A stretch of DNA of 23,795 nucleotides. It comes from an uncultured Deinococcales bacterium. Its GTDB lineage: Bacteria; Deinococcota; Deinococci; Deinococcales; JAAFIG01. Shown piece after piece: positions 1,750 to 23,795 of this stretch. A model generated the notes under the pieces. The model did no database searches. It was not told the DNA's origin and saw only the letters and a program-made list of their open reading frames with translations. A program made the translations under genes and the position numbers. The stretch lies in the NCBI GenBank assembly GCA_964247135.1, contig CAXTTL010000048.1, positions 1-23,795 on the forward strand, read 5' to 3'. Numbering within the stretch: position 1 is the first letter of the stretch; each line of letters opens with the position of its first letter.

Positions 1750-3951
1750 TCAAATCAACCCTTGTTCAAGCGCTTGCCTGGTGGCTGCGGCTCGAGTGGC
1801 AACGTTTAATTTTGAGAAAATCGAACGAAGGTGCGTGTGAACGGTGCTGCCCGACATGCCCAATTCTGATGCAATTTTCTTGTTGGTTTTGCCATCTGCC
1901 AGCAACTTTATGACCTCGAGTTCGCGTGGTGTCAGGTCGCTTAAGGTATCACGGGCTTTGGACGCAGTCTGGTTCCGATTGACCTGGGCAATGCCCAGTT
2001 GGTGTTCGTGAACCAGTTTTTGAGCGCCAATCAATCGAGCAATCTCTATGCCAGCCGTAAAATGCTCAAGTGCTTGACTGAAGTTATTTTCGTCAAGCTC
2101 AAGCCAACCCAAGTACAACAATGCCTGACTTTCCAATGGACGGGCTTTTGCGTTTTGCGCTTGGACAAGACTCAACTCGAGCAATTGACGTGATCGTTGA
2201 TGATTTCTCAAAAGTCGTTCGGCGTTTCCAAAATTTGCTTGCCCCAATGCCATCAAGTGTGGTGGGAGATCAGCAACATACTCGAGCGCGAGTTCAAAGG
2301 TTTGTCGTGCTTCAAGCAATTTATTTGCGGTTGTAAGAATTCGACCCAGCAAATTCAGGTTGGCAAAAAATTGCAAGTTGTCCTCTGGGGTTTTCTGATT
2401 GACCGTGATCAAATTTAAACTGGTCAGACTTTGGCGTATCAGGTTTTCTGCTTGTTCATGGTTTTGGGTGTTGAGTTCAATCTCAGCCAACATCATCAGC
2501 GCTCTGGCAAGCAATTGATGGTTCGTTGTTTGATGATTGCTTGTTAATAAGGTCTTTTCAACGTGCTGACGGGCAGCAAAGTCATCGCCTTGTCTGAGGG
2601 CAAAAGTGCCAGCCAATAGCAACACTTCGTGAAAACGCAAATCGTCTTTTGAAAGTTTGATGAGCAGGTTTTCCAAAATACTGCGAGCTTCAGCCAGAAA
2701 ACCACGGATTTGCCAGTGGTAATGTTCCGCCGAAATAAAATCCCACGCCCAGTCAAAAAACCTGTTTTCAATACACCACCGTAAGGCTTGGTCAATGTTG
2801 TCGTGTTCAAGCCCAAGTATCTCGAGGTAAGCTGCTTGTTCGGCGCTTTCAAGTAACTGTGCCGCTTTTTTGACAACACTCAAAGCGTATTCAACATGGG
2901 TTTTTTGAGCCGTCTCGAGTTCACCTGCCAATTTCAGTTTCTCGAGTGCGTATTCACGTACCGATTCGAGCAATAAAAATCGTGCTGGTTGACTGTCTTT
3001 GCTGGTTTCGACCAGGCTGTTTTCGACCAAAACTGTCACATCTTCCAAAACCTCTGGGTTGCCGTTGATGATTTCGGCAGCTTCAAGGCTAAAGCCACCA
3101 CAAAACACACCCAAACGCATCAACAACTGCTGGTGTGCTGGCTGAAGCAGGTTAAAACTCCAATCGAGCGTTGCGCGTAAACCACGTTGGCGTTCGGGCA
3201 AATCTCTTGCACCGCTCGAGAGAATGTTCAACGGTTGGTTTAGCATCTCGAGCAAAACTTGGGGGCTGAACATGCGCAACCGTGCGGCTGCAAGTTCAAT
3301 TGCCAGGGGCGAACCCACCAATTTTCGAGTCATTTCAGCGACCGCAAAAGCGTTATCGGCATCCAATTTAAAATCTGGTCTGATGGCTTTGGCTCGAGCC
3401 AGCAACAACTGCACCGAAGACACGTTTTGCAAGCCATCCAGGCTGGTTTTTGCAGGGGCTGGCTCGAGTCCAGAAATTGGAAATTCGTGTTCGCCAGCCA
3501 GTCGCAACGGTGCGCGACTGGTTGTCAACATTTTCAAATCCTTGGCACTTCTGAGCTTGGCAACCACGTTTGAAGCCGCCTCGAGTACATGCTCGAGGTT
3601 ATCAAGCACCAGCAGCATTTGGCGCTCACTTAAAAACCAGGCGATACTTTCGAGCGCATCGCCTTGCCAATCTTGCAAACCCAATTCTTGGGCTATCTTG
3701 CTGGCAATCAAAGCCCCGTCTTGAATCGGGGCGAGTGAAACAAACACCACACCATCACGAAATTGTCCTAAAGCTGCTTGCGCCACCGCCAAGGCGAGCC
3801 GTGTTTTGCCGTTCCCTCCCGCGCCAATCAAGGTCAGTAAAAAAACCTCGTCGCGCTCGAGCAACTCGAGCACTTGCGCGATTTCTCGTTCGCGTCCAAA
3901 CAATCTGGTGGCAGGAACTGGCAGAACTGGATGGTCGGCAGCTACGGTCAT
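1750..3951 (-). CDS. STAND/NB-ARC-type ATPase - TPR - LuxR-HTH transcriptional regulator
   Basis: LFGRERE, Walker A GAGGNGKT, Walker B LLVLDNLE, TTSR, GSPLAIELAA, helical TPR-like repeats, and a C-terminal LuxR HTH (LTPRELEVIKLLADGKTNKKIA...TVHTHLRSIFSKL). Confidence 0.9.
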   Translation of the reverse strand: MTVAADHPVLPVPATRLFGREREIAQVLELLERDEVFLLTLIGAGGNGKTRLALAVAQAALGQFRDGVVFVSLAPIQDGALIASKIAQELGLQDWQGDALESIAWFLSERQMLLVLDNLEHVLEAASNVVAKLRSAKDLKMLTTSRAPLRLAGEHEFPISGLEPAPAKTSLDGLQNVSSVQLLLARAKAIRPDFKLDADNAFAVAEMTRKLVGSPLAIELAAARLRMFSPQVLLEMLNQPLNILSSGARDLPERQRGLRATLDWSFNLLQPAHQQLLMRLGVFCGGFSLEAAEIINGNPEVLEDVTVLVENSLVETSKDSQPARFLLLESVREYALEKLKLAGELETAQKTHVEYALSVVKKAAQLLESAEQAAYLEILGLEHDNIDQALRWCIENRFFDWAWDFISAEHYHWQIRGFLAEARSILENLLIKLSKDDLRFHEVLLLAGTFALRQGDDFAARQHVEKTLLTSNHQTTNHQLLARALMMLAEIELNTQNHEQAENLIRQSLTSLNLITVNQKTPEDNLQFFANLNLLGRILTTANKLLEARQTFELALEYVADLPPHLMALGQANFGNAERLLRNHQRSRQLLELSLVQAQNAKARPLESQALLYLGWLELDENNFSQALEHFTAGIEIARLIGAQKLVHEHQLGIAQVNRNQTASKARDTLSDLTPRELEVIKLLADGKTNKKIASELGMSGSTVHTHLRSIFSKLNVATRAAATRQALEQGLI

Positions 3952-7068: not shown

Positions 7069-7418
7069 TGCAAGCCTCAAAAATACTGCTGGCGGTCATC
7101 ATGGCGGCGGCTGGCGTGATTCATTTCGTCAACCCGCAAATTTACGTTGCCATCATGCCCAAGGACCTGCCGTGGCATCTGGCGCTCGTGTACATTTCGG
7201 GGTTTCTCGAGCTTCTGTTTGGTGTTGGGTTGTTGACTGGGTTCTCGAGTTTTGCGGCTTGGGGCTTGATCGCCTTGTTTGTTGCGGTGTTTCCCGCAAA
7301 CTTGAACATGGCGTTTCATCCAGAACTTGTGCCCCAAATTCCGAGGCTGTTGTTGTGGCTTCGGTTGCCACTTCAAGCCGTACTGATTTGGTGGGCTTGG
7401 CAGCTTACAAAAATTTGA
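7068..7418 (+). CDS. DoxX-like small membrane protein
   Basis: AGVIHF, LVYISGFLE, AVFPANLNMA and LRLPLQ are typical of this family. The start overlaps the hslO stop (TAATG), implying translational coupling. Confidence 0.8.
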   Translation: MQASKILLAVIMAAAGVIHFVNPQIYVAIMPKDLPWHLALVYISGFLELLFGVGLLTGFSSFAAWGLIALFVAVFPANLNMAFHPELVPQIPRLLLWLRLPLQAVLIWWAWQLTKI

Positions 7419-7423
7419 GCCAT

Positions 7424-7446
7424 AAAAAACGCGCCCGTTTAGGCGC
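7424..7446 (-). terminator. Terminator-like hairpin oriented for minus-strand transcription
   Basis: The minus strand reads GCGCC-TAAACG-GGCGC-GTTTTTT. Confidence 0.45.
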
Positions 7447-7457
7447 TGATGGGGTAT

Positions 7458-7486
7458 ATTGTAACACCGTATTCGGTATTCGTCAA
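7458..7486 (-). promoter_or_regulatory. Near-consensus sigma70/SigA promoter
   Basis: The minus strand reads TTGACG (7486-7481), a 17-nt spacer ending TGT, then TACAAT (7463-7458). Confidence 0.6.
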
Positions 7487-7562
7487 GACTATGCACTCGA
7501 GTCGTGCTGCACGGGTCGCTCGAGTTTGAAATTTGAGAGCGTTTTCGTTTAAACTCGAGCAC

Positions 7563-8021
7563 ATGAAATTACTGGCTTTGCTCACGTGTCTTCTGATCTT
7601 CTCTGGTTTCGCCGATGCTCGAGTGCGAAGAGCGGGTACAACGCAATTGCAAACCTTGATCAATCAAGCTCGAGCTTCGGGGGTTCGTTGCGCGGGTGGT
7701 GGCGGGGTGAGGCTGGCTCAACTTGGAGGCAATCATTTGCTGGCGCTTGCCGCTCGAGGTCATGCCGCCAACATGAGCCGTTACGGTTTCGTCTCGCATT
7801 ATTTTCGAGGTGTTGGACCGCGCACTCGAGTTCCACGGGCAGGGTATACATTCTCGAGGATGTCCGAAATTATTTTTAAGGGTTCGGGCGGAGCAAGCCG
7901 TGCGCTGCGTTGGTGGTTGCGCAGTCCCGTGCATTGCCGTGCGATCATGAACTCGTACTACCGCGAAATTGGCACGGCGGTTGTGGGCAATGCTTTCGTG
8001 GTGGTCATGGCGGTTCATTAA
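7563..8021 (+). CDS. Secreted CAP (SCP/Tpx/Ag5) domain protein
   Basis: Signal peptide MKLLALLTCLLIFSGFADA; motifs LINQARA, AARGHAANM, FVSH and WLRSPVHCRAIMN..YREIG. TAAACT 7550-7555 lies 7 nt before ATG. Confidence 0.88.
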   Translation: MKLLALLTCLLIFSGFADARVRRAGTTQLQTLINQARASGVRCAGGGGVRLAQLGGNHLLALAARGHAANMSRYGFVSHYFRGVGPRTRVPRAGYTFSRMSEIIFKGSGGASRALRWWLRSPVHCRAIMNSYYREIGTAVVGNAFVVVMAVH

Positions 8022-8053
8022 ACTCGAGCTTGATTGCCGTGCAGCCTCAAAGG

Positions 8054-8341
8054 CTACGACAGATTTTCGCCAGCCACTTTATAGGTATCCGAGAGGGGTT
8101 GACCGATGCTGTGTGCAAACCAGATGCGGATTGCCGCTTTCGCATCGGCTGCATCCATTTCACCTCGCTCAACTTGCTCGAGCAGCGGCATGAGGGGCTG
8201 AATGGTTTGCAAAAACTTTGCGAGTTGGATTTCCATGAAGGCGCTCATGTTCATGTCCATCGCCTGAAAAACCTGGCGTGACTTTCGATAAATGTCAGGG
8301 TCTATCGTCAGGTTGACTCGGGCTTTGGTCATTTTTCCCAT
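8054..8341 (-). CDS. Small ribbon-helix-helix (CopG/CcdA-like) DNA-binding protein
   Basis: N-terminal KARVNLTIDPDIYRK...MNMSAFMEIQL fits an RHH beta-alpha-alpha pattern. Minus-strand TACGCT lies 6 nt before ATG 8341; an alternative start is 8332. Confidence 0.6.
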   Translation of the reverse strand: MGKMTKARVNLTIDPDIYRKSRQVFQAMDMNMSAFMEIQLAKFLQTIQPLMPLLEQVERGEMDAADAKAAIRIWFAHSIGQPLSDTYKVAGENLS

Positions 8342-8345
8342 TCCA

Positions 8346-8385
8346 AAAGCGTACAGATACAATACATATGATATCTGTACGCTTT
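8346..8385. promoter_or_regulatory. Perfect 14-bp inverted repeat (operator and/or amylase terminator)
   Basis: AAAGCGTACAGATA-N12-TATCTGTACGCTTT. One arm contains the putative -10 of the RHH gene. Confidence 0.6.
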
Positions 8386-8463
8386 CTTACAAATTGACCT
8401 TCAATAGCTTAAATCTGGTCTGATCAACCTTAAAGACTGCATCTCTCGAGCCTCGAGGTTTGA

Positions 8464-10362
8464 TTATTGAAAATTCCCGCCATTGTAACTGCTGGCGACC
8501 GTGCTCGGCACGGTGAAGCTGCGGTTGCTGCCGCCCTCATAGGTGTTGTCGAGCGTAAATTTAAACTGCATGGCTTGGGCGTAAGGCAAATTGCGGGTCA
8601 CAGTCCAATCGCAGGCTGTGCCGCTGCAATTGCTGGCACTCATCAACATTTTATTGGTTAAATTCCAGCTTCCAAGTTCCGTGGTGCTGCCAACCAGGTA
8701 AATGTTCTGACCCAAATTGGTGTTGGCACGAACTTTGAAAGTCACCGCCGAAGTGCTTGGCGGCGGCGTTACGCCGCCAGCGCGGTAGATGGCGGCAGTT
8801 TGGGCGGGGATGCTGACGCTCAACGCACCAGATGCCACGGTGCTCGAGCCTCCGGCAATGGCATCCGTGAAGACTGTGCCGTTGGTTAAAGCGGCGCGGT
8901 CGGCGGCAGTGATGCCCGTGTTGGCTTGAATGTTCAAGAACACGTTGGCGGCTTGCGTGCCGTTGTTAAAGACCACAATCACACGGCTGCTGCCCGATCC
9001 ACGGTAAAACGCGTAAACGTTGGTGCTCGAGCCGTTGGGACGCCACATTTCGCTGTAATAACCGTCGTACAGGGCTGGGGTGTCGGCGCGAATTTGAGCC
9101 AGGAGTTTGGTGCGATTATAGGTTAAATTGGGGCTGGAAATGGTTAAGCCGTTCGGTACGGCGCTGCTGCGGGTGGCGTCCGTCCAAGCCCAGGATGGCA
9201 TGTCTTTGCGGTTGTCTGGGTCGCTGCCGCCGTACATGCCCAGTTCGTTGCCGTAGTACAGTTGCGGAATCCCTGGGATGGTAAACAATGCAGCCAAGCC
9301 GAGGTGGTAACGGTTGCGAATGTCGCTTTCCGCAACGCCAAAACCAGGTTCGTTGGTGAAGCGTGGCAGGTCGTGGTTGTCGAGCAAGTTGGTCATCATC
9401 AGGGTTTGGTTGATCCCCAGGGTGTTGATGGTGTCCTGAACTCGAGCCGCCACGGCATCCAAACTGCCCGCTTTGGCAAAACCGCTGACCAGGCTGTCGC
9501 GCAAGTAAAAGTTGAACATCGAATCAAAACCGGTGTTCAAATACGTCTGGTATCTCGAGAGTGAACCCGTGTCGAGCAGTTCGCCGACCAGGAACAAATC
9601 GCTTTTGATGCTGCGCACGCCAGGAACCCAGGAATTTTGAAAATAACTTGGGATCACGTGTTTGACCGTGTCCATGCGAATGCCGTCGAGCGCAAAACGG
9701 CTCGTCCAACCTTTTGACAAATTGGTGAGGTACGTTGCGACGTTGGCGTCTTGGTGTTTGAAATCTGGCAGTCCCGCCAATGGACAGGTGATGTCGTCTG
9801 GACAAGGTCCAGTCTGAAACCAAGTCGGTTGTTGGGTGGTGACGCTGGCGTTGTAACCGGCGTGGTTGACAACCATATCGAGAATAAATTTCATGTTATT
9901 GCTGTGCAGATCAGTGACCAAACCCGTCAGGTCGCTGCTGGTTCCCATTTTCGGCTCGAGCGCGGCGTCGTCTGGGCTGGCGAGGTTCGCCCAATAACCG
10001 TGATAGCCGCAAGAATTGTTGATAACCCCAATTTGCTTGTTGGCGGGCGTGACCCACAGAGCGGTTGCCCCAAGGTCTTTGAGGTAGGCGATTTTCTGGC
10101 GCAGTCCCGCCCAGTCTCCGCCGTGAAATTTTTGCGGGTTGGCGGCATCAAGGCAGCCAGCAACGCCCAAATTGTCGTTGGCAGCGTTTCCATTGTAGAA
10201 ACGATCTGGCAAGGAAAGGTAAATCACTTGCTTGTGCCACAGGCTCGCATCCACCGCCCGAGTGCTTGGTAGCGCTTCCATAACTGGCGCAACGACAGGG
10301 TTGCTCGAGCAGGCGGCGAGCGAGGCGCATAAGAGCGCCAATCCAATGAAACGGTGTTTCAT
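8464..10362 (-). CDS. GH13 alpha-amylase family lipoprotein with C-terminal CBM20 starch-binding domain
   Basis: Lipobox SLAAC; GH13 regions DMVVNH, GIRMDTVKH, LVGELL and LLDNHD; a Pro/Ser linker followed by CBM20 VTFKVRANTNLGQNIYLVGSTTELGSW. AAGGA upstream favours ATG 10362. Confidence 0.92.
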   Translation of the reverse strand: MKHRFIGLALLCASLAACSSNPVVAPVMEALPSTRAVDASLWHKQVIYLSLPDRFYNGNAANDNLGVAGCLDAANPQKFHGGDWAGLRQKIAYLKDLGATALWVTPANKQIGVINNSCGYHGYWANLASPDDAALEPKMGTSSDLTGLVTDLHSNNMKFILDMVVNHAGYNASVTTQQPTWFQTGPCPDDITCPLAGLPDFKHQDANVATYLTNLSKGWTSRFALDGIRMDTVKHVIPSYFQNSWVPGVRSIKSDLFLVGELLDTGSLSRYQTYLNTGFDSMFNFYLRDSLVSGFAKAGSLDAVAARVQDTINTLGINQTLMMTNLLDNHDLPRFTNEPGFGVAESDIRNRYHLGLAALFTIPGIPQLYYGNELGMYGGSDPDNRKDMPSWAWTDATRSSAVPNGLTISSPNLTYNRTKLLAQIRADTPALYDGYYSEMWRPNGSSTNVYAFYRGSGSSRVIVVFNNGTQAANVFLNIQANTGITAADRAALTNGTVFTDAIAGGSSTVASGALSVSIPAQTAAIYRAGGVTPPPSTSAVTFKVRANTNLGQNIYLVGSTTELGSWNLTNKMLMSASNCSGTACDWTVTRNLPYAQAMQFKFTLDNTYEGGSNRSFTVPSTVASSYNGGNFQ

Positions 10363-13864: not shown

Positions 13865-16800
13865 ATGCCCAATAACCCAAATTATCTGTACCCCGCAGGT
13901 TCGGTCATAATGCACTCACCGTTGATGCTCGAGAACTCGGACATGTACGGTTATTTTGCCAAAGGCAATTTAAAGAACTTGCAAGCCAGCATTGATGGCA
14001 CGCTAAACACCACGGCTGGCAGCAAACTGAACTTTCAAGTCATCTCGCCGTATGTGCTTTTAACCTTTACCAATGTTGGTCATGCGTACTCGCAAAACCC
14101 AGTTGACCAAGCCAAAGGCTGGATTCAAGAAACCGACATCATCACCTGGATCATGGTCGGGCAGATGGCTGCAAACGGCAAACTCGAGCGAATTTTCTTT
14201 TACCCGTTTCATATCTTCGTCAACGACACGATGGCACTCATCAACGGACGCGAGTTGTTCGGCTATCCCAAGTACGACTGCCAGTACACCATGCCAGGCG
14301 TTGGCGGCAGTCAAACCGATTGCACCCTCAGCGTTAAAGGTTTTCAACCGTTCTCGAGCGACACCGAAATTGCTTGGCATCCGCTGCTCGAGGTCAACGC
14401 CGTCACCAGCAACAAACCGCACAAAATCATTAACGGCGGTTGGCTCGAGTTTTTAAAAGAGGTTTTTGAGATTTTAAAATCAATACCCGACTTTTTAAAC
14501 ATGGACGTGGCAGGTTGGGAAGATGTGATTTCGATGTTGCTCGTGCCGAGGGTCGATCAAATTTTCTTAAAGCAATTTCCAGATTCGGCGGGCGTCAAAG
14601 CTGTTTATCAAAGTGTGCTGACCGCACCTGCAATGGTTGATAAAATTCACAGTGTCAAATTGTTGGGTGACGATTACAGCCTCAATCTCCATCAGGTCGC
14701 CAGCTTTCCGCTCGCCGATTCGCTCGGGCTGACGCTCGGCGTGCAAAACGTCTTGCTGCCATTCAACCTCAACTTTGATTTTTCAGTCCCACCAGGCGAG
14801 GTTCTGGCAGACAACTCGAGCCTCCCGCCCCAGAAGGTGGCGATTCTGGGCGGTGGCGTGGGTTCGATGACCTCAGCGTATTACCTCAGCAGTCAACCAG
14901 GCTGGCAAGAAAAATACGACATCACCGTGTACCAAATGGGTTGGCGTTTGGGCGGCAAGGGCGCGAGTGGACGCAACGCCGCCTTCGGGCAACGCATCGA
15001 AGAGCACGGTTTGCACATTTGGTTTGGCTTTTACGACAACGCCTTTAAAATGCTGCGCGAGGCTTACGACACGCTGGCTCGACCCGCAGGCGCTCCACTC
15101 GCCACCTGGCAAGACGCCTTCAAACCACAAGATTACATCGTGCTGACCGAATGGATTAACGAGCAGTGGAAAATCTGGAACCTCGAGTTTCCGCACATGC
15201 CAGGTACGCCAGGTGACGGCACAGAGAAACTCAGCATGTTCGACAGCGCCGAAGCTTTGCTGACTTGGGTTCGAGGTTGGATTCATGACGCGCACCGCCT
15301 GAGCGCCACCAAACCACCAATCTCGAGCGAACCGCACGAAAATTGGTTGCAACGCCTTGCCAGCACTTTAGAGCGCGACGTTGAAGATGTGGTGGTTGAC
15401 GTTCGGGTTGTGATTGACGGACTGACTGGCGCGTTCAAGAACCTCAAAACCCACGAAGACCATTCGATGATTTCTGCCAGCTTGCGCGGCGTCAAAAAAT
15501 GGTTGATGCACCTTTTGGACCAGAAACTCGAGGACAACGACGAACTGCGCCGCGTGTTTATTTGCGCCGACCTGGGCATCACGGTGTTGATTGGAATGCT
15601 CGAGGATGGCGTGTTCGAGCACGGTTTTGACGTGATGAACAACATTGACTTTAGAGACTGGCTGACCAAGTACGGCGCGAACGTTCAATTTTCGGTGGAC
15701 AGCGCCCCAGTTCGCGGTTTTTACGATCTGGTGTTTGCCTTTGAAGGCGGCGATTTGAACAAACCCAACATCGAAGCGGGCACGTTGCTTCGCGCCATGA
15801 TGCTGATTGGCATTGCTTACAAAGGCAGCATCATGTTCAAAATGCAGGCAGGCATGGGCGACACGATTTTCAGCCCGATGTACCAAGTTTTAAAAGAGCG
15901 CGGCGTGAAATTCAAGTTCTTCCATAAAGTTGAAGAACTCATCCCAGACGATACGGGAATTGCCAAAATTCGCCTGACCGAACAAGTCCAAATCTCGAGC
16001 GGCAACGCGCAATATCAACCTTTTGTTTACGTTAACGGTCTGGCATGTTGGGGACACCAACCCAATTACGACCAAATTCTGCCAGCCGAAGCCGAACTCT
16101 TGCAGCAGAACAACATCAACCTCGAGTCGAGTTGGAGCAACTGGGCAGACGTCTACCAAAGCGCGTTCGGCTCTCCCCTGCCCAGTGTCACGCTCGAGCG
16201 TGGCAAAGATTTTGACTTGGTGATTTTTGGGATTTCCAAAGGTTCATTGACCGCGTTGTGCCCGCAATTGCTGGCAAAAAGTTCTGCCATGACCAAAATG
16301 AACAACGCCGTGCAAACCGTGGCGACCCAAGCCTATCAAGTCTGGCTGACCAAAGACCTTGCCGACCTGGGCTGGACGAACCAACCGAACGGGCAAGAAC
16401 CCGTCTTGAGCGGCTACACCGAACCGTTTGACACTTGGGCGCCAATGGATCAATTGCTGGTGCGCGAAGACTGGAAAGCGGGAGCGCAAAACCCAAAAAA
16501 CGTCTCGTACTTTTGCAGCGTGCTGCCGATCTCGAGCTTCCCGCCGTTTAGCGATTACGGCTTCCCCGCCAAAATGTCAGAAATGGTCAAGCAAGGCGCG
16601 ATCAACCAACTCGAGCATCACATGCAAGCGTTGATGCCCAATGCCGTGACGGTTGACGGATTTCAATGGGATTGGTTGACCGACACCAGCAGCGCGACGG
16701 GTAAAACCAGGTTTGACAGCCAATACTGGCGAGCCAACATTGACCCAAGCGAACAATACGTCATGAGTGTGGTTGACAGCACCGCACAGAGGCTCGAGAC

Positions 16801-16957
16801 GGACGGGAGTGGCTTTGCGAACTTGTACTTGACGGGTGACTGGATCAAAACCAACATCAACGCGGGGTGCGTTGAGGCTGCGGTCATGGCGGGAATGCAA
16901 ACCTCGAGAGCGATTTCAGGATTTCCGAAGGTGATTCAAGGCGAAAAAGATTTTTAG
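13865..16957 (+). CDS. Fusion of an acetoacetate-decarboxylase-like domain and an FAD/NAD(P)-binding oxidoreductase (amine oxidase/carotene desaturase-like)
   Basis: N-domain has GRELFGYPK (ADC-family Schiff-base Lys). From about aa 323: KVAILGGGVG, RLGGKGASGR, EEHGLHIWFGFY, and C-terminal NLYLTGDW...GCVEAAVMAG. TATACT 13853-13858 lies 6 nt before ATG. Confidence 0.8.
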   Translation: MPNNPNYLYPAGSVIMHSPLMLENSDMYGYFAKGNLKNLQASIDGTLNTTAGSKLNFQVISPYVLLTFTNVGHAYSQNPVDQAKGWIQETDIITWIMVGQMAANGKLERIFFYPFHIFVNDTMALINGRELFGYPKYDCQYTMPGVGGSQTDCTLSVKGFQPFSSDTEIAWHPLLEVNAVTSNKPHKIINGGWLEFLKEVFEILKSIPDFLNMDVAGWEDVISMLLVPRVDQIFLKQFPDSAGVKAVYQSVLTAPAMVDKIHSVKLLGDDYSLNLHQVASFPLADSLGLTLGVQNVLLPFNLNFDFSVPPGEVLADNSSLPPQKVAILGGGVGSMTSAYYLSSQPGWQEKYDITVYQMGWRLGGKGASGRNAAFGQRIEEHGLHIWFGFYDNAFKMLREAYDTLARPAGAPLATWQDAFKPQDYIVLTEWINEQWKIWNLEFPHMPGTPGDGTEKLSMFDSAEALLTWVRGWIHDAHRLSATKPPISSEPHENWLQRLASTLERDVEDVVVDVRVVIDGLTGAFKNLKTHEDHSMISASLRGVKKWLMHLLDQKLEDNDELRRVFICADLGITVLIGMLEDGVFEHGFDVMNNIDFRDWLTKYGANVQFSVDSAPVRGFYDLVFAFEGGDLNKPNIEAGTLLRAMMLIGIAYKGSIMFKMQAGMGDTIFSPMYQVLKERGVKFKFFHKVEELIPDDTGIAKIRLTEQVQISSGNAQYQPFVYVNGLACWGHQPNYDQILPAEAELLQQNNINLESSWSNWADVYQSAFGSPLPSVTLERGKDFDLVIFGISKGSLTALCPQLLAKSSAMTKMNNAVQTVATQAYQVWLTKDLADLGWTNQPNGQEPVLSGYTEPFDTWAPMDQLLVREDWKAGAQNPKNVSYFCSVLPISSFPPFSDYGFPAKMSEMVKQGAINQLEHHMQALMPNAVTVDGFQWDWLTDTSSATGKTRFDSQYWRANIDPSEQYVMSVVDSTAQRLETDGSGFANLYLTGDWIKTNINAGCVEAAVMAGMQTSRAISGFPKVIQGEKDF

Positions 16958-21826: not shown

Positions 21827-22567
21827 ATGCAAGTCTCCCCCATCAACCCAGATCAAGAAATTTTAACGGCTGTCGCTCGAGCGTACTCGAGTTTCAATCG
21901 TGACTCGAGTGCTTGGATTGAGGGTTTTACAGCCCGAGGCGGAAAAATTCACTGCCAGTCTGGGTGCTTTCACTGCTGCAATTTCCCGATTCGGGTCAGT
22001 CTTGCCGAAGCCCTGCTAACCGCTTCGCAATTGAGCCTCGAGCAGTTGGAAGCCATGAAATTCCACGCGCAAAACGTCCTCGAGAATGCGAAAACCGCCT
22101 CGAGTTGGGATGAATATTTTGCGCGTCATCGTGAAGAGGTGGGGTTCTGTCCGTTGCTTGACCGTGCAACTGGCGCTTGTGGGGCTTACGAGGCACGCCC
22201 CGGGCGTTGCCGCGATACCTTCAGCGCCCTGAGTGCCGATTACTGCAAGGTCGGCACGCTCGAGCATTTAAACCGCAACCAGCGTTTGGCGTACCAACGT
22301 GCCGTGAAAGCCAACCCCGCCACCGATGGACTCAGCCATTACGTCGCGCCGCTCGAAGATTTGGGTACAACCATCTGGGAGGTTGCCAGTCGTCAAATGC
22401 GGCAATCTTGGGGTTTGGAAATCTGGGGCGATTTTTGGGTGCTGACAACCCTGTCCCGAGATGACGCATTTATGGCGGCGGTTCGGGCTGGACAGGTCAA
22501 ATCTGCGTCCAGACGCGCCAAGATTCTGGGTTTGTGGCATCTCGAAATCGTGCAAATTGAGTCTTGA
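21827..22567 (+). CDS. YkgJ/UPF0153-family cysteine-cluster (Zn/Fe-S) protein
   Basis: CQSGCFHCC ... CPLLD...CGAYEARPGRCR. Confidence 0.88.
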   Translation: MQVSPINPDQEILTAVARAYSSFNRDSSAWIEGFTARGGKIHCQSGCFHCCNFPIRVSLAEALLTASQLSLEQLEAMKFHAQNVLENAKTASSWDEYFARHREEVGFCPLLDRATGACGAYEARPGRCRDTFSALSADYCKVGTLEHLNRNQRLAYQRAVKANPATDGLSHYVAPLEDLGTTIWEVASRQMRQSWGLEIWGDFWVLTTLSRDDAFMAAVRAGQVKSASRRAKILGLWHLEIVQIES

Positions 22568-22686
22568 GTTTTGAAGCAAGCTCAACCAGTTTCTTTGCAC
22601 AATCTTCGATTTCTTTCAGTCTTACCTTAGCGCTTGCCATTTACACTTCCATTATCTCGAGATTGCTCGAGTCTCAGGAGGTTTTT

Positions 22687-23778
22687 ATGGCTTTAGGAAC
22701 GTTTCAACGAACTCCGATTTCGACGCTCGAGTTTCCACGGTTTCAAAGCATTGGCGCGGCTTTGTTCTTGCTTGGCGTGTTCGCCACTTTTTTTGGTTTG
22801 GGTTGGGATGTGCAGTGGCACAACGACGTTGGTCCTGACACCTTCTGGACGTTACCGCACAGCATTTTGTACTTTGGCGCGGCGCTCAGCGGTTTTGCCT
22901 GTTTGACCGTGGTGCTCATTGGCACGTTCGCATCTCGGGAAACCCGCACTTTGCCAGGCATGGTCCCGATTTTGGGCGGCATGTTTTACGCCCCAATCGG
23001 TTTTATTGTCGGTGGTTTTGGCGCGGCAGGTTTTTTAAGTTTCGGGCTGTTCGACCAGTACTGGCACGCGTTATTCGGTTTTGATGTTTCGATCAGTTCG
23101 CCGCCGCACATGGGTTTGATTTTCAGTTACATCATGGCGGTCTCGGGTTGCGTGCTGGTGTTCGTTCGGGGACGCGAAACCCGAACAATGTCTTTTGTGG
23201 TTGCCACCGCGCTGGCGCTGGGTTTTACACTGCCATTCGTGCAAATGAACCTCTGGGAATTCAACCTCGAGATTCCAATGTTTTTGTTTCCAGCTTTATT
23301 TTTATCGCTTGGCATGTTGTTTGTGGCGTCCGTCAGCCGCAAGCCTTGGATGCTTTTTGTCATGACTTTGGTGTTTGCGGCGTTTCGTTATTTGTGCTGG
23401 TTTGCTTTTCCGATCATCACTTCAGGTTATGCCAGTGCCTTGGGTTTGGCTTTGCGCGATCAACCTTCAGACAACCCGATGATTCCGTACCTGATGCCAA
23501 TGTTGCTGCCCTTGGCGGGTTTGATCTCGAGTGGCGTGTTGGTTTTCGCCAAATCTCGAGGCTGGCGGGTGACTCCCAGTGTCTTGTTGGCTGGAGCTTT
23601 GGGAGCGCCACTGATGTACGTCGATTTGTTTCTTGGGCAGATTGTGACTGGCTTTCCGCTTATTTTGCTTGGTGCTGCCATTTTGGGTGCTCTGGGCGCT
23701 TGGTTGGGCTGGCAATTGGGTGTCGTGGCGCGTCATGCCAACGTCCAACTCGAGCAAGTTCAGGGGGTGCAATCGTGA
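22687..23778 (+). CDS. Polytopic membrane protein with two DxxWH...PH putative metal-binding motifs (PmoC/AmoC-like)
   Basis: About 9-10 hydrophobic segments; motifs WDVQWHNDVGPDTFWTLPH and FDQYWHALFGFDVSISSPPH. RBS AGGAGG precedes ATG 22687. Confidence 0.8.
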   Translation: MALGTFQRTPISTLEFPRFQSIGAALFLLGVFATFFGLGWDVQWHNDVGPDTFWTLPHSILYFGAALSGFACLTVVLIGTFASRETRTLPGMVPILGGMFYAPIGFIVGGFGAAGFLSFGLFDQYWHALFGFDVSISSPPHMGLIFSYIMAVSGCVLVFVRGRETRTMSFVVATALALGFTLPFVQMNLWEFNLEIPMFLFPALFLSLGMLFVASVSRKPWMLFVMTLVFAAFRYLCWFAFPIITSGYASALGLALRDQPSDNPMIPYLMPMLLPLAGLISSGVLVFAKSRGWRVTPSVLLAGALGAPLMYVDLFLGQIVTGFPLILLGAAILGALGAWLGWQLGVVARHANVQLEQVQGVQS

Positions 23779-23795
23779 AATTGGCAACTCAAGCT
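23775..23795 (+). CDS. Probable start of a translationally coupled downstream gene (truncated by the window end)
   Basis: GTGA start/stop overlap, purine-rich AGGGGG upstream, and a frame open to the window end (MKLATQA). Confidence 0.4.

Follow-up and report, generated by a model that had tools for sequence, protein, structure and literature searches.

A PmoC-like membrane protein with two conserved metal-site motifs and a predicted copper-chaperone-type partner in an uncultured Deinococcales bacterium

The window analyzed here is a stretch of 23,795 nucleotides (nt) that makes up an entire contig (CAXTTL010000048.1; G000:C48) of an uncultured Deinococcales bacterium, whose genome assembly (GCA_964247135.1) comprises 5.09 Mb in 386 contigs and is 84% complete. 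At the right-hand end of the window, an open reading frame (ORF) of 363 codons on the forward strand (22687-23778), with an ATG start and a TGA stop at 23776-23778, is preceded by a Shine-Dalgarno-like AGGAGG (22676-22681, forward strand) read directly from the sequence, with a spacing of 5 nt to the ATG. Its product, P0001, is a membrane protein of 363 amino acids (aa) that has about ten transmembrane (TM) helices and, as judged from the ORF, an AlphaFold model and loop charges, both termini inside. The GTG start of a second gene lies at 23775 and overlaps the stop codon (GTGA), as had been noted in the original prediction, an earlier reading of the window made from its letters alone. This second gene, which encodes the partner protein discussed below, appears to be translationally coupled to the first; its first seven codons (VKLATQA; 23775-23795, forward strand) are present before the contig edge ends it. 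Full-length orthologs are available from L003, a Deinococcales relative (L003:7089-7613), and from L002 and L025; a search of the assembly with the L003 protein did not find the remainder of the gene elsewhere.

P0001 carries two Asp/His motifs, D41/H45/H58 (D-x3-H-x12-H) within WDVQWHNDVGPDTFWTLPH and D123/H127/H141 (D-x3-H-x13-H) within FDQYWHALFGFDVSISSPPH, and four of its five His lie inside them. In 20,000 shuffled versions of P0001, the first motif turned up 25 times and the second 20 times, but never the two in one shuffle. The AlphaFold2 model, built with a 33-sequence alignment (predicted local distance difference test (pLDDT) 87.4, predicted template-modeling score (pTM) 0.87), places each motif on a short interhelical loop and the two helix ends that flank it (helices 15-47 and 56-80, and helices 104-130 and 139-159), in agreement with their originally proposed position at the ends of TM hairpins. 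The loops carry nine Lys/Arg on one side of the membrane and one on the other, so the termini are predicted to be inside and both motifs extracytoplasmic. The first four helices form an N-terminal domain (residues 10-165; 22714-23181, forward strand) with a PmoC/AmoC-like core and a duplicated TM hairpin. The extra C-terminal helices that had also been foreseen number six in the model; they form a second domain (residues 166-363; 23182-23775, forward strand) that is absent from PmoC and includes a conserved periplasmic loop, YAxxLGxxLRD (248-258). The six-helix S component of ECF transporters, which acts together with EcfT/EcfA, was weighed as a possible counterpart of this second domain. Hairpins 1 and 2 of the N-terminal domain match each other with an hhalign probability of 96.8% (E-value 2.3e-10) and appear, from this profile comparison, to be an internal duplication.

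The family to which P0001 belongs is large. A search of 5.8 billion proteins returned 69 homologs at E<=1e-3, all unnamed or 'hypothetical' and including two Deinococcus and two Umezawaea proteins, and the family profile retrieved 3009 of 1.84 billion cluster representatives (50% identity) at E<=1e-3, 1751 at <=1e-10 and 372 at <=1e-30. In species-representative genomes, 599 stretches were matched, of which 583 were confirmed and 80 loci kept. The kept loci include five Deinococcales metagenome-assembled genomes (MAGs), three of them with proteins 83-87% identical to P0001, as well as Thermomicrobiales and Chloroflexota MAGs, Acidobacteriota and Gemmatimonadaceae; many are from Actinomycetota (Nocardia, Amycolatopsis, Lentzea, Mycobacterium, Streptomyces and others). 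Homologs from cultured species include P0050 and P0051 of Deinococcus ruber and D. oregonensis. The family apparently has no Pfam or NCBIfam model: P0001 itself matched nothing in Pfam, NCBIfam or the sequences of the PDB, Pfam models found nothing in 10 further distant members, and no family assignment came from NCBIfam models run on 51 members. Pfam DUF7598, which matched two of 33 members weakly, was rejected because the match was not repeated in the 10 distant members. Matches in the ESM Atlas were confined to unnamed actinobacterial clusters. Longer members carry no extra domains in the nine proteins inspected, and a search among proteins of 733-2090 aa found no member, which is weak evidence. 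Full-text literature searches on PmoC/AmoC-like proteins and on YtkA copper operons turned up no published account of the family in the portions of the articles that they returned; the matches dealt with other copper systems or with authentic pmoC genes of methanotrophs and phages.

Conservation of the six putative ligands in homologs, on which the original prediction had been made to depend, is seen throughout two alignments. D41, H45, H58, D123, H127 and H141 are invariant both in alignment A1 (33 family sequences, 20-86% identical to P0001) and in a second alignment, A4 (51 sequences). Also invariant in A1 are W40, G49, F53, Y62, G105, W126, G131 and D133; D133 is invariant in A4 as well, and D51 is nearly invariant in A1 and invariant in A4. 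Both motifs, 70-110 residues apart, are present in 208 of 216 family proteins, the remainder being two proteins with a spacing of 67-69, fragments and P0211. The invariant polar residues in A1 and A4 all lie on the outer face, with none inside the membrane or on the cytoplasmic side.

The two motifs resemble the ligand sets of PmoC. In Methylococcus capsulatus PmoC, the ligands described in the relevant passages of PMC12576850 are Asp156/His160/His173 for CuC and Asn227/His231/His245 for CuD. A genuine AmoC reference was obtained with the subunit C of locus L082, whose gene is followed by PmoA- and PmoB-like ORFs; it retrieved 51 proteins, all with PF04896, which form alignment A2. D144/H148/H161 and N217/H221/H235 are invariant in A2, with the +4/+13 and +4/+14 spacings of the CuC and CuD ligands as given in those passages, and the agreement in spacing claimed at the outset is thus borne out. 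D41/H45/H58 align to D144/H148/H161 of A2 and present the CuC pattern Asp-x3-His-x12-His; with D51, these codons (D41...H45...D51...H58; 22807-22860, forward strand) mark a putative site 1, identified by invariance, by the hhalign register and by the ligands in the cited part of PMC12576850. On the same grounds, the codons D123...H127...D133...H141 (23053-23109, forward strand) mark a putative site 2: H127 and H141 align to H221 and H235 at equal spacing, but the first position holds an invariant Asp, D123, where AmoC has an invariant Asn. Residues other than the ligands are also identical and in the same order (W-H, R/P-D-T, [FW]-T-P-x-H and S-x-P-x-H).

Profile comparison of A1 with A2 put the six ligand positions in register over 115 columns (E 0.0012), at a probability of only 19%. 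With the N-terminal domain (residues 10-165) of 169 full-length members set against 44 AmoC sequences, the probability rose to 92.6% (E 4.5e-7, 116 columns) in the same register. Negative controls were very low (C-terminal domain against AmoC, 0.6%; N-terminal domain against reversed AmoC, 0.2%; reversed N-terminal domain against AmoC, 0.3%), and hairpin 1 alone matched AmoC hairpin 1 at 95.9% (E 5.3e-9). Below threshold, the Pfam AmoC model matched five of 33 members at 12.4-15.3 bits (gathering threshold 26.7), at profile positions 113-148 only, which cover the first motif, and NCBIfam AmoC_BACT matched one of 51 members (E 0.0064). The likeness of fold to PmoC that was expected holds for the N-terminal domain, the model of which superimposes on PmoC residues 83-242 (7s4m_C); the 14% sequence identity to PmoC is the highest among its fold matches. 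For the full P0001 model, Foldseek gave no match at E<=1e-3; PmoC was outside the top 50, likewise in a wide VIA search, and surfaced only on re-alignment of Foldseek's top 1000. Taken together, the N-terminal domain is very probably a remote homolog of the PmoC metal-site core, and the original suggestion of a distant copper membrane monooxygenase (CuMMO) relative is upheld.

The family is, at the same time, not a member of CuMMO subunit C. It shares with PmoC, AmoC and HmoC (PF04896) the four-helix core and two adjacent sites, D-x3-H-x12-H followed by [D/N]-x3-H-x13-H; however, it falls outside that family because it has no counterpart to the N-terminal part of PmoC (of an HmoC-like protein of 296 aa, roughly residues 119-259 alone can be aligned), has six more helices, has Asp for Asn at site 2 and is not accompanied by pmoA or pmoB. 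Genes for xmoA and xmoB are absent beside the family genes among the 80 loci, where the neighbors are the partner, a YtkA-like protein and a secreted protein of about 480 aa. No match to PF04896, PF02461 or PF04744 was found in the 84%-complete assembly, and the description of the organism as an apparent non-methanotroph stands as far as it can be checked. The hairpins of AmoC match each other at 0.4%, compared with 96.8% in the family; that the family hairpins still match while those of AmoC no longer do suggests that a hairpin was duplicated and the copies then diverged to give the PmoC pocket.

Genuine CuMMO genes were encountered along the way. PF04896 occurs in two of 301 sampled genomes of the Mycobacterium family (about 190 bits). 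The two carry the hmoCAB-like operons of L082 and L083 (G038:C144 and G004:C19), with a subunit C 96% identical to a protein recorded from Smaragdicoccus niigatensis. Three metagenomic proteins of 502-514 aa (P0229, P0235 and P0236) contain both PF04896 and PF02461 and are natural xmoC-xmoA fusions.

The partner gene lies directly downstream of the family gene in 73 of the 80 loci. It was traced with a hidden Markov model built from three proteins, of which only the first-round matches were used (74 ORFs in 73 loci, starts re-cut) because further iteration added ORFs that were out of frame in high-GC loci. The gene is missing from L071, which ends within the family gene, from five loci of Acidobacteriota and Gemmatimonadaceae, and from L021, dropped because no start lay in range. 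Its start overlaps the upstream stop codon by 4 nt in 28 of 73 loci and by 8 nt in 30, and in P0081, P0114 and P0094 the partner is naturally fused to the C-terminus of the family protein. The L003 partner, which overlaps its upstream stop as ATGA, has 174 aa with a signal peptide, a beta-rich domain and a C-terminal helix; its AlphaFold model (pLDDT 90.5) shows an eight-strand sandwich (27-130) followed by a helix (138-163). Across 40 partners (alignment A3), H27, S52, D54, W95, G96 and D98 are invariant.

The best fold match of the partner is CrdA of Helicobacter pylori (Foldseek E 2.1e-5; Z 11.4 in the wide VIA search; 99 of 108 residues), 2 Z-units above the rest, which are HftA, Tp34 and FtrA-P19 (8.6-9.4, wide VIA search), PmoD (1.8e-3; 8.3) and CopC (1.2e-3; 7.0). 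The partner is thus predicted from models to be an extracytoplasmic, membrane-anchored beta-sandwich of copper-chaperone type. The original prediction had proposed an extracytoplasmic, PmoB-like or copper-binding partner: the extracytoplasmic location stood, and the best fold matches are the copper proteins CrdA, PmoD, CopC and P19; the protein is closer to PmoD, CrdA and YtkA than to PmoB. PmoD has the same layout of signal peptide, sandwich and anchor in the account given in part of PMC6189053; however, the same part describes two strictly conserved periplasmic Cys in PmoD, whereas no Cys is invariant or nearly so in A3. The CuA-like ligand set of PmoD is thus absent, the partner having no conserved Cys or Met, and no sequence-level match between the partner and PmoD was found. 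The partner also differs from CrdA and the YtkA/CtaK-type domains (PF13115) in that the M-x-x-M-G-H of its YtkA-like neighbors is not conserved in it; the partner profile matches those actinobacterial neighbors at 84.9% by hhalign (E 6.4e-6), so a distant relationship to YtkA is possible.

A complex of the L003 pair, modeled after removal of the signal peptide, supports binding between the membrane protein and its partner. The interface score, ipSAE, was 0.87, against 0.00 for the best of three controls; this mark is attained by 58 of 80 solved complexes and by two of 110 mismatched pairs, a calibration that is only approximate because own alignments were used for the pair. The runs agree in at least 97% of contacts, with a partner pLDDT of at least 85. 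In the predicted complex, the partner helix packs on membrane-protein residues 104-153 and 342-351, and the sandwich contacts residues 45, 48-51, 126, 129-134 and 137-139, that is, the two motif loops.

In actinobacterial loci, the two genes form the end of a four-gene operon that encodes a secreted protein of about 480 aa, a YtkA-family protein, the PmoC-like membrane protein and the partner (for example, L017:4100-5548 for the secreted protein and L017:5545-5952 for the YtkA-family protein). The YtkA-family gene, directly upstream of the membrane-protein gene (31.5 bits; cut-off 25.9), is present in 68 of the 80 loci; the secreted protein, found upstream in 71 of the 80, belongs to no family and gave weak Filamin/PKD hints only. 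Both genes are absent from the five Deinococcales loci. In Bacillus subtilis, the YtkA domains of CtaK and of the YcnJ C-terminus support copper delivery to cytochrome oxidase, according to the relevant part of PMC13344008. The present genome has one YtkA-family gene (44.9 bits; G000:C233:6251-6493, L084), on another contig and unlinked to the locus, and the metagenomic member P0062 has a weak YtkA/FixH-like N-terminal extension. Other genes flanking actinobacterial subsets (an MpaB/Lcp-type oxygenase, an alpha/beta hydrolase, methyltransferases and an ABATE regulator) were considered and set aside, none being copper-specific. The loci from Acidobacteriota and Gemmatimonadaceae may have a different partner arrangement. 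In this subfamily (L077:7026-7343 and 7297-8556), the usual partner is missing; the signal peptide of a downstream ORF seemingly ends just before a His (AVA/HVGSPDVY), and a relative of the 480-aa protein follows.

These results are best accommodated by a two-protein, outward-facing metal center of which P0001 would be the membrane subunit. Its first four helices would keep both ligand triads, each with an extra invariant Asp (D51 and D133), while the partner would pack its helix against TM3, TM4 and TM10 and lay its beta-sandwich over both motif loops. The pair would bind copper at two sites and pass it on to, or hold it for, extracytoplasmic copper proteins. That it is a copper relay, acquisition or holding module for extracytoplasmic cuproproteins, and not a methane or ammonia oxidizer, is given a probability of roughly 0.5. 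Homology, ligand conservation, topology, gene coupling, natural fusions and the predicted interface are results obtained in silico; from them we infer copper as the metal and trafficking rather than catalysis. A transmembrane importer is not favored, since no invariant polar path crosses the membrane. The logic resembles that of CopC/CopD/YtkA systems such as YcnJ of B. subtilis, in which an outward copper-binding beta-sandwich is combined with a polytopic membrane protein with conserved His (as described in part of PMC13344008); however, neither protein has a CopC or CopD Pfam match, and the membrane domain is of another family.

Several observations weigh against a copper-trafficking pair related to the PmoC core. 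Sites rich in Asp and His are as fitting for Zn, Fe or Mn as for Cu(II), and ill suited to Cu(I). The 40 partners have no conserved Cys or Met, lack the Met/Cys/His-rich motifs of CrdA, PmoD and YtkA, and contain no Pfam family (YtkA, PF13115, in 0 of 40). No copper genes were found near the P0001 gene in the window, and an operator pattern of RicR/CsoR type (TACCC-N5-GGGTA) occurred in 0 of 83 loci. As for the relationship to PmoC, hairpin 2 alone matched AmoC weakly (12.8%), P0001 had no match to Pfam AmoC at E<=10, and neither the family profile nor the distant member P0064 matched any PDB sequence. In addition, the sole role known for the PmoC site, in the part of PMC11725843 that concerns it, is catalytic, which favors an enzyme.

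An enzyme is the alternative that survives best, and it is possible, if unlikely, that the family is a self-contained PmoC-type copper oxidase or oxygenase that needs neither PmoA nor PmoB and acts on a substrate soluble in the membrane; the partner would then shape or load the active site. The particulate methane monooxygenase (pMMO) pocket with CuC and CuD is described as the active site in the same part of PMC11725843, both triads and the extra acidic residues are invariant in the family, and the invariant residues are confined to one surface, as for a catalytic center and unlike a channel. The partner resembles a fixed subunit in its fusions and predicted helix-helix contact, and the separate YtkA-like protein of the actinobacterial loci could be the loading chaperone. 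However, the operon has no conserved gene for a reductase, quinol binding or electron transfer, and its context points to no substrate. Site 2 holds Asp where CuMMOs have invariant Asn. No PmoA-like domain is present: the C-terminal domain, tried as a PmoA counterpart, was rejected at a probability of 0.5%, against a shallow PmoA alignment of five sequences.

It is improbable that the pair handles Zn, Fe or Mn in place of copper, whether as a binuclear hydrolase in the membrane or for metal uptake by a permease with a partner of P19/FetP type. The Asp/His ligands would suit any of these metals, but CrdA, the best fold match of the partner by 2 Z-units, is a copper protein, 68 of 80 loci have a bona fide YtkA-family gene in the same operon, the homologous PmoC sites hold copper in the active enzyme (in the relevant parts of PMC11725843 and PMC12576850), and there is no conserved intramembrane path for transport. 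Less probable still is a convergent resemblance to PmoC, in which the N-terminal domain would be a generic four-helix bundle, perhaps heme-binding like cytochrome b561 or CcmF, given the shared residues beyond the ligands, the agreement in their order and in the +4/+13 and +4/+14 spacings, the hhalign controls below 1%, the top rank of PmoC by identity (14%) among the fold matches, and four His that lie at one membrane face beside invariant Asp, unlike the bis-His pattern on two levels (the four-His, two-level arrangement of a di-heme cytochrome b of the b561/Dcytb type, tried as a candidate, was not found).

The remainder of the window contains a CxxCxxCC protein, a HAD hydrolase and unrelated housekeeping genes as neighbors of the P0001 gene. 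The CxxCxxCC protein (21827-22567, forward strand; 246 aa; PF03692, YkgJ-type Zn/Fe-chelating) is encoded directly upstream on the same strand; since the Deinococcales relative has an ortholog at the same position (L003:5135-5887), the gene may be part of the locus as it occurs in Deinococcales. Further away, the window encodes a 1030-aa protein (13865-16957, forward strand) in which, unusually, an acetoacetate-decarboxylase-like region is joined to NAD(P)/FAD-binding oxidoreductase domains, and a 733-aa STAND-type regulator (1750-3951, reverse strand) with NB-ARC/AAA, TPR and LuxR-type GerE domains.

What is new in this family is the architecture around a PmoC-type double site, the partner and the occurrence in non-methanotrophs. 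The CuC/CuD pocket, at which methane and ammonia monooxygenases are proposed to have their active site, is difficult to investigate, since the enzyme is fragile once removed from membranes, as stated in part of PMC11725843. A large family that keeps both sites in a simpler two-protein setting in cultivable non-methanotrophs could be a tractable model for the chemistry of these sites, could uncover a new pathway by which cells handle copper at their surface and would supply an outgroup for CuMMO evolution; the portion of PMC6215863 on this subject describes the ammonia monooxygenase of Thaumarchaeota as an outgroup chosen by distance only. It is doubtful, though conceivable, that these proteins are self-contained and widespread relatives of the CuMMO active-site subunit, namely PmoC-class copper oxygenases or oxidases of an ancestral type, each with one subunit of chaperone fold. 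If so, such enzymes would be spread over Deinococcota, Actinomycetota, Chloroflexota, Acidobacteriota and Gemmatimonadota, the hairpin duplication would show the origin of the CuC/CuD pocket, and the family would be the first outgroup with which to root the CuMMO tree.
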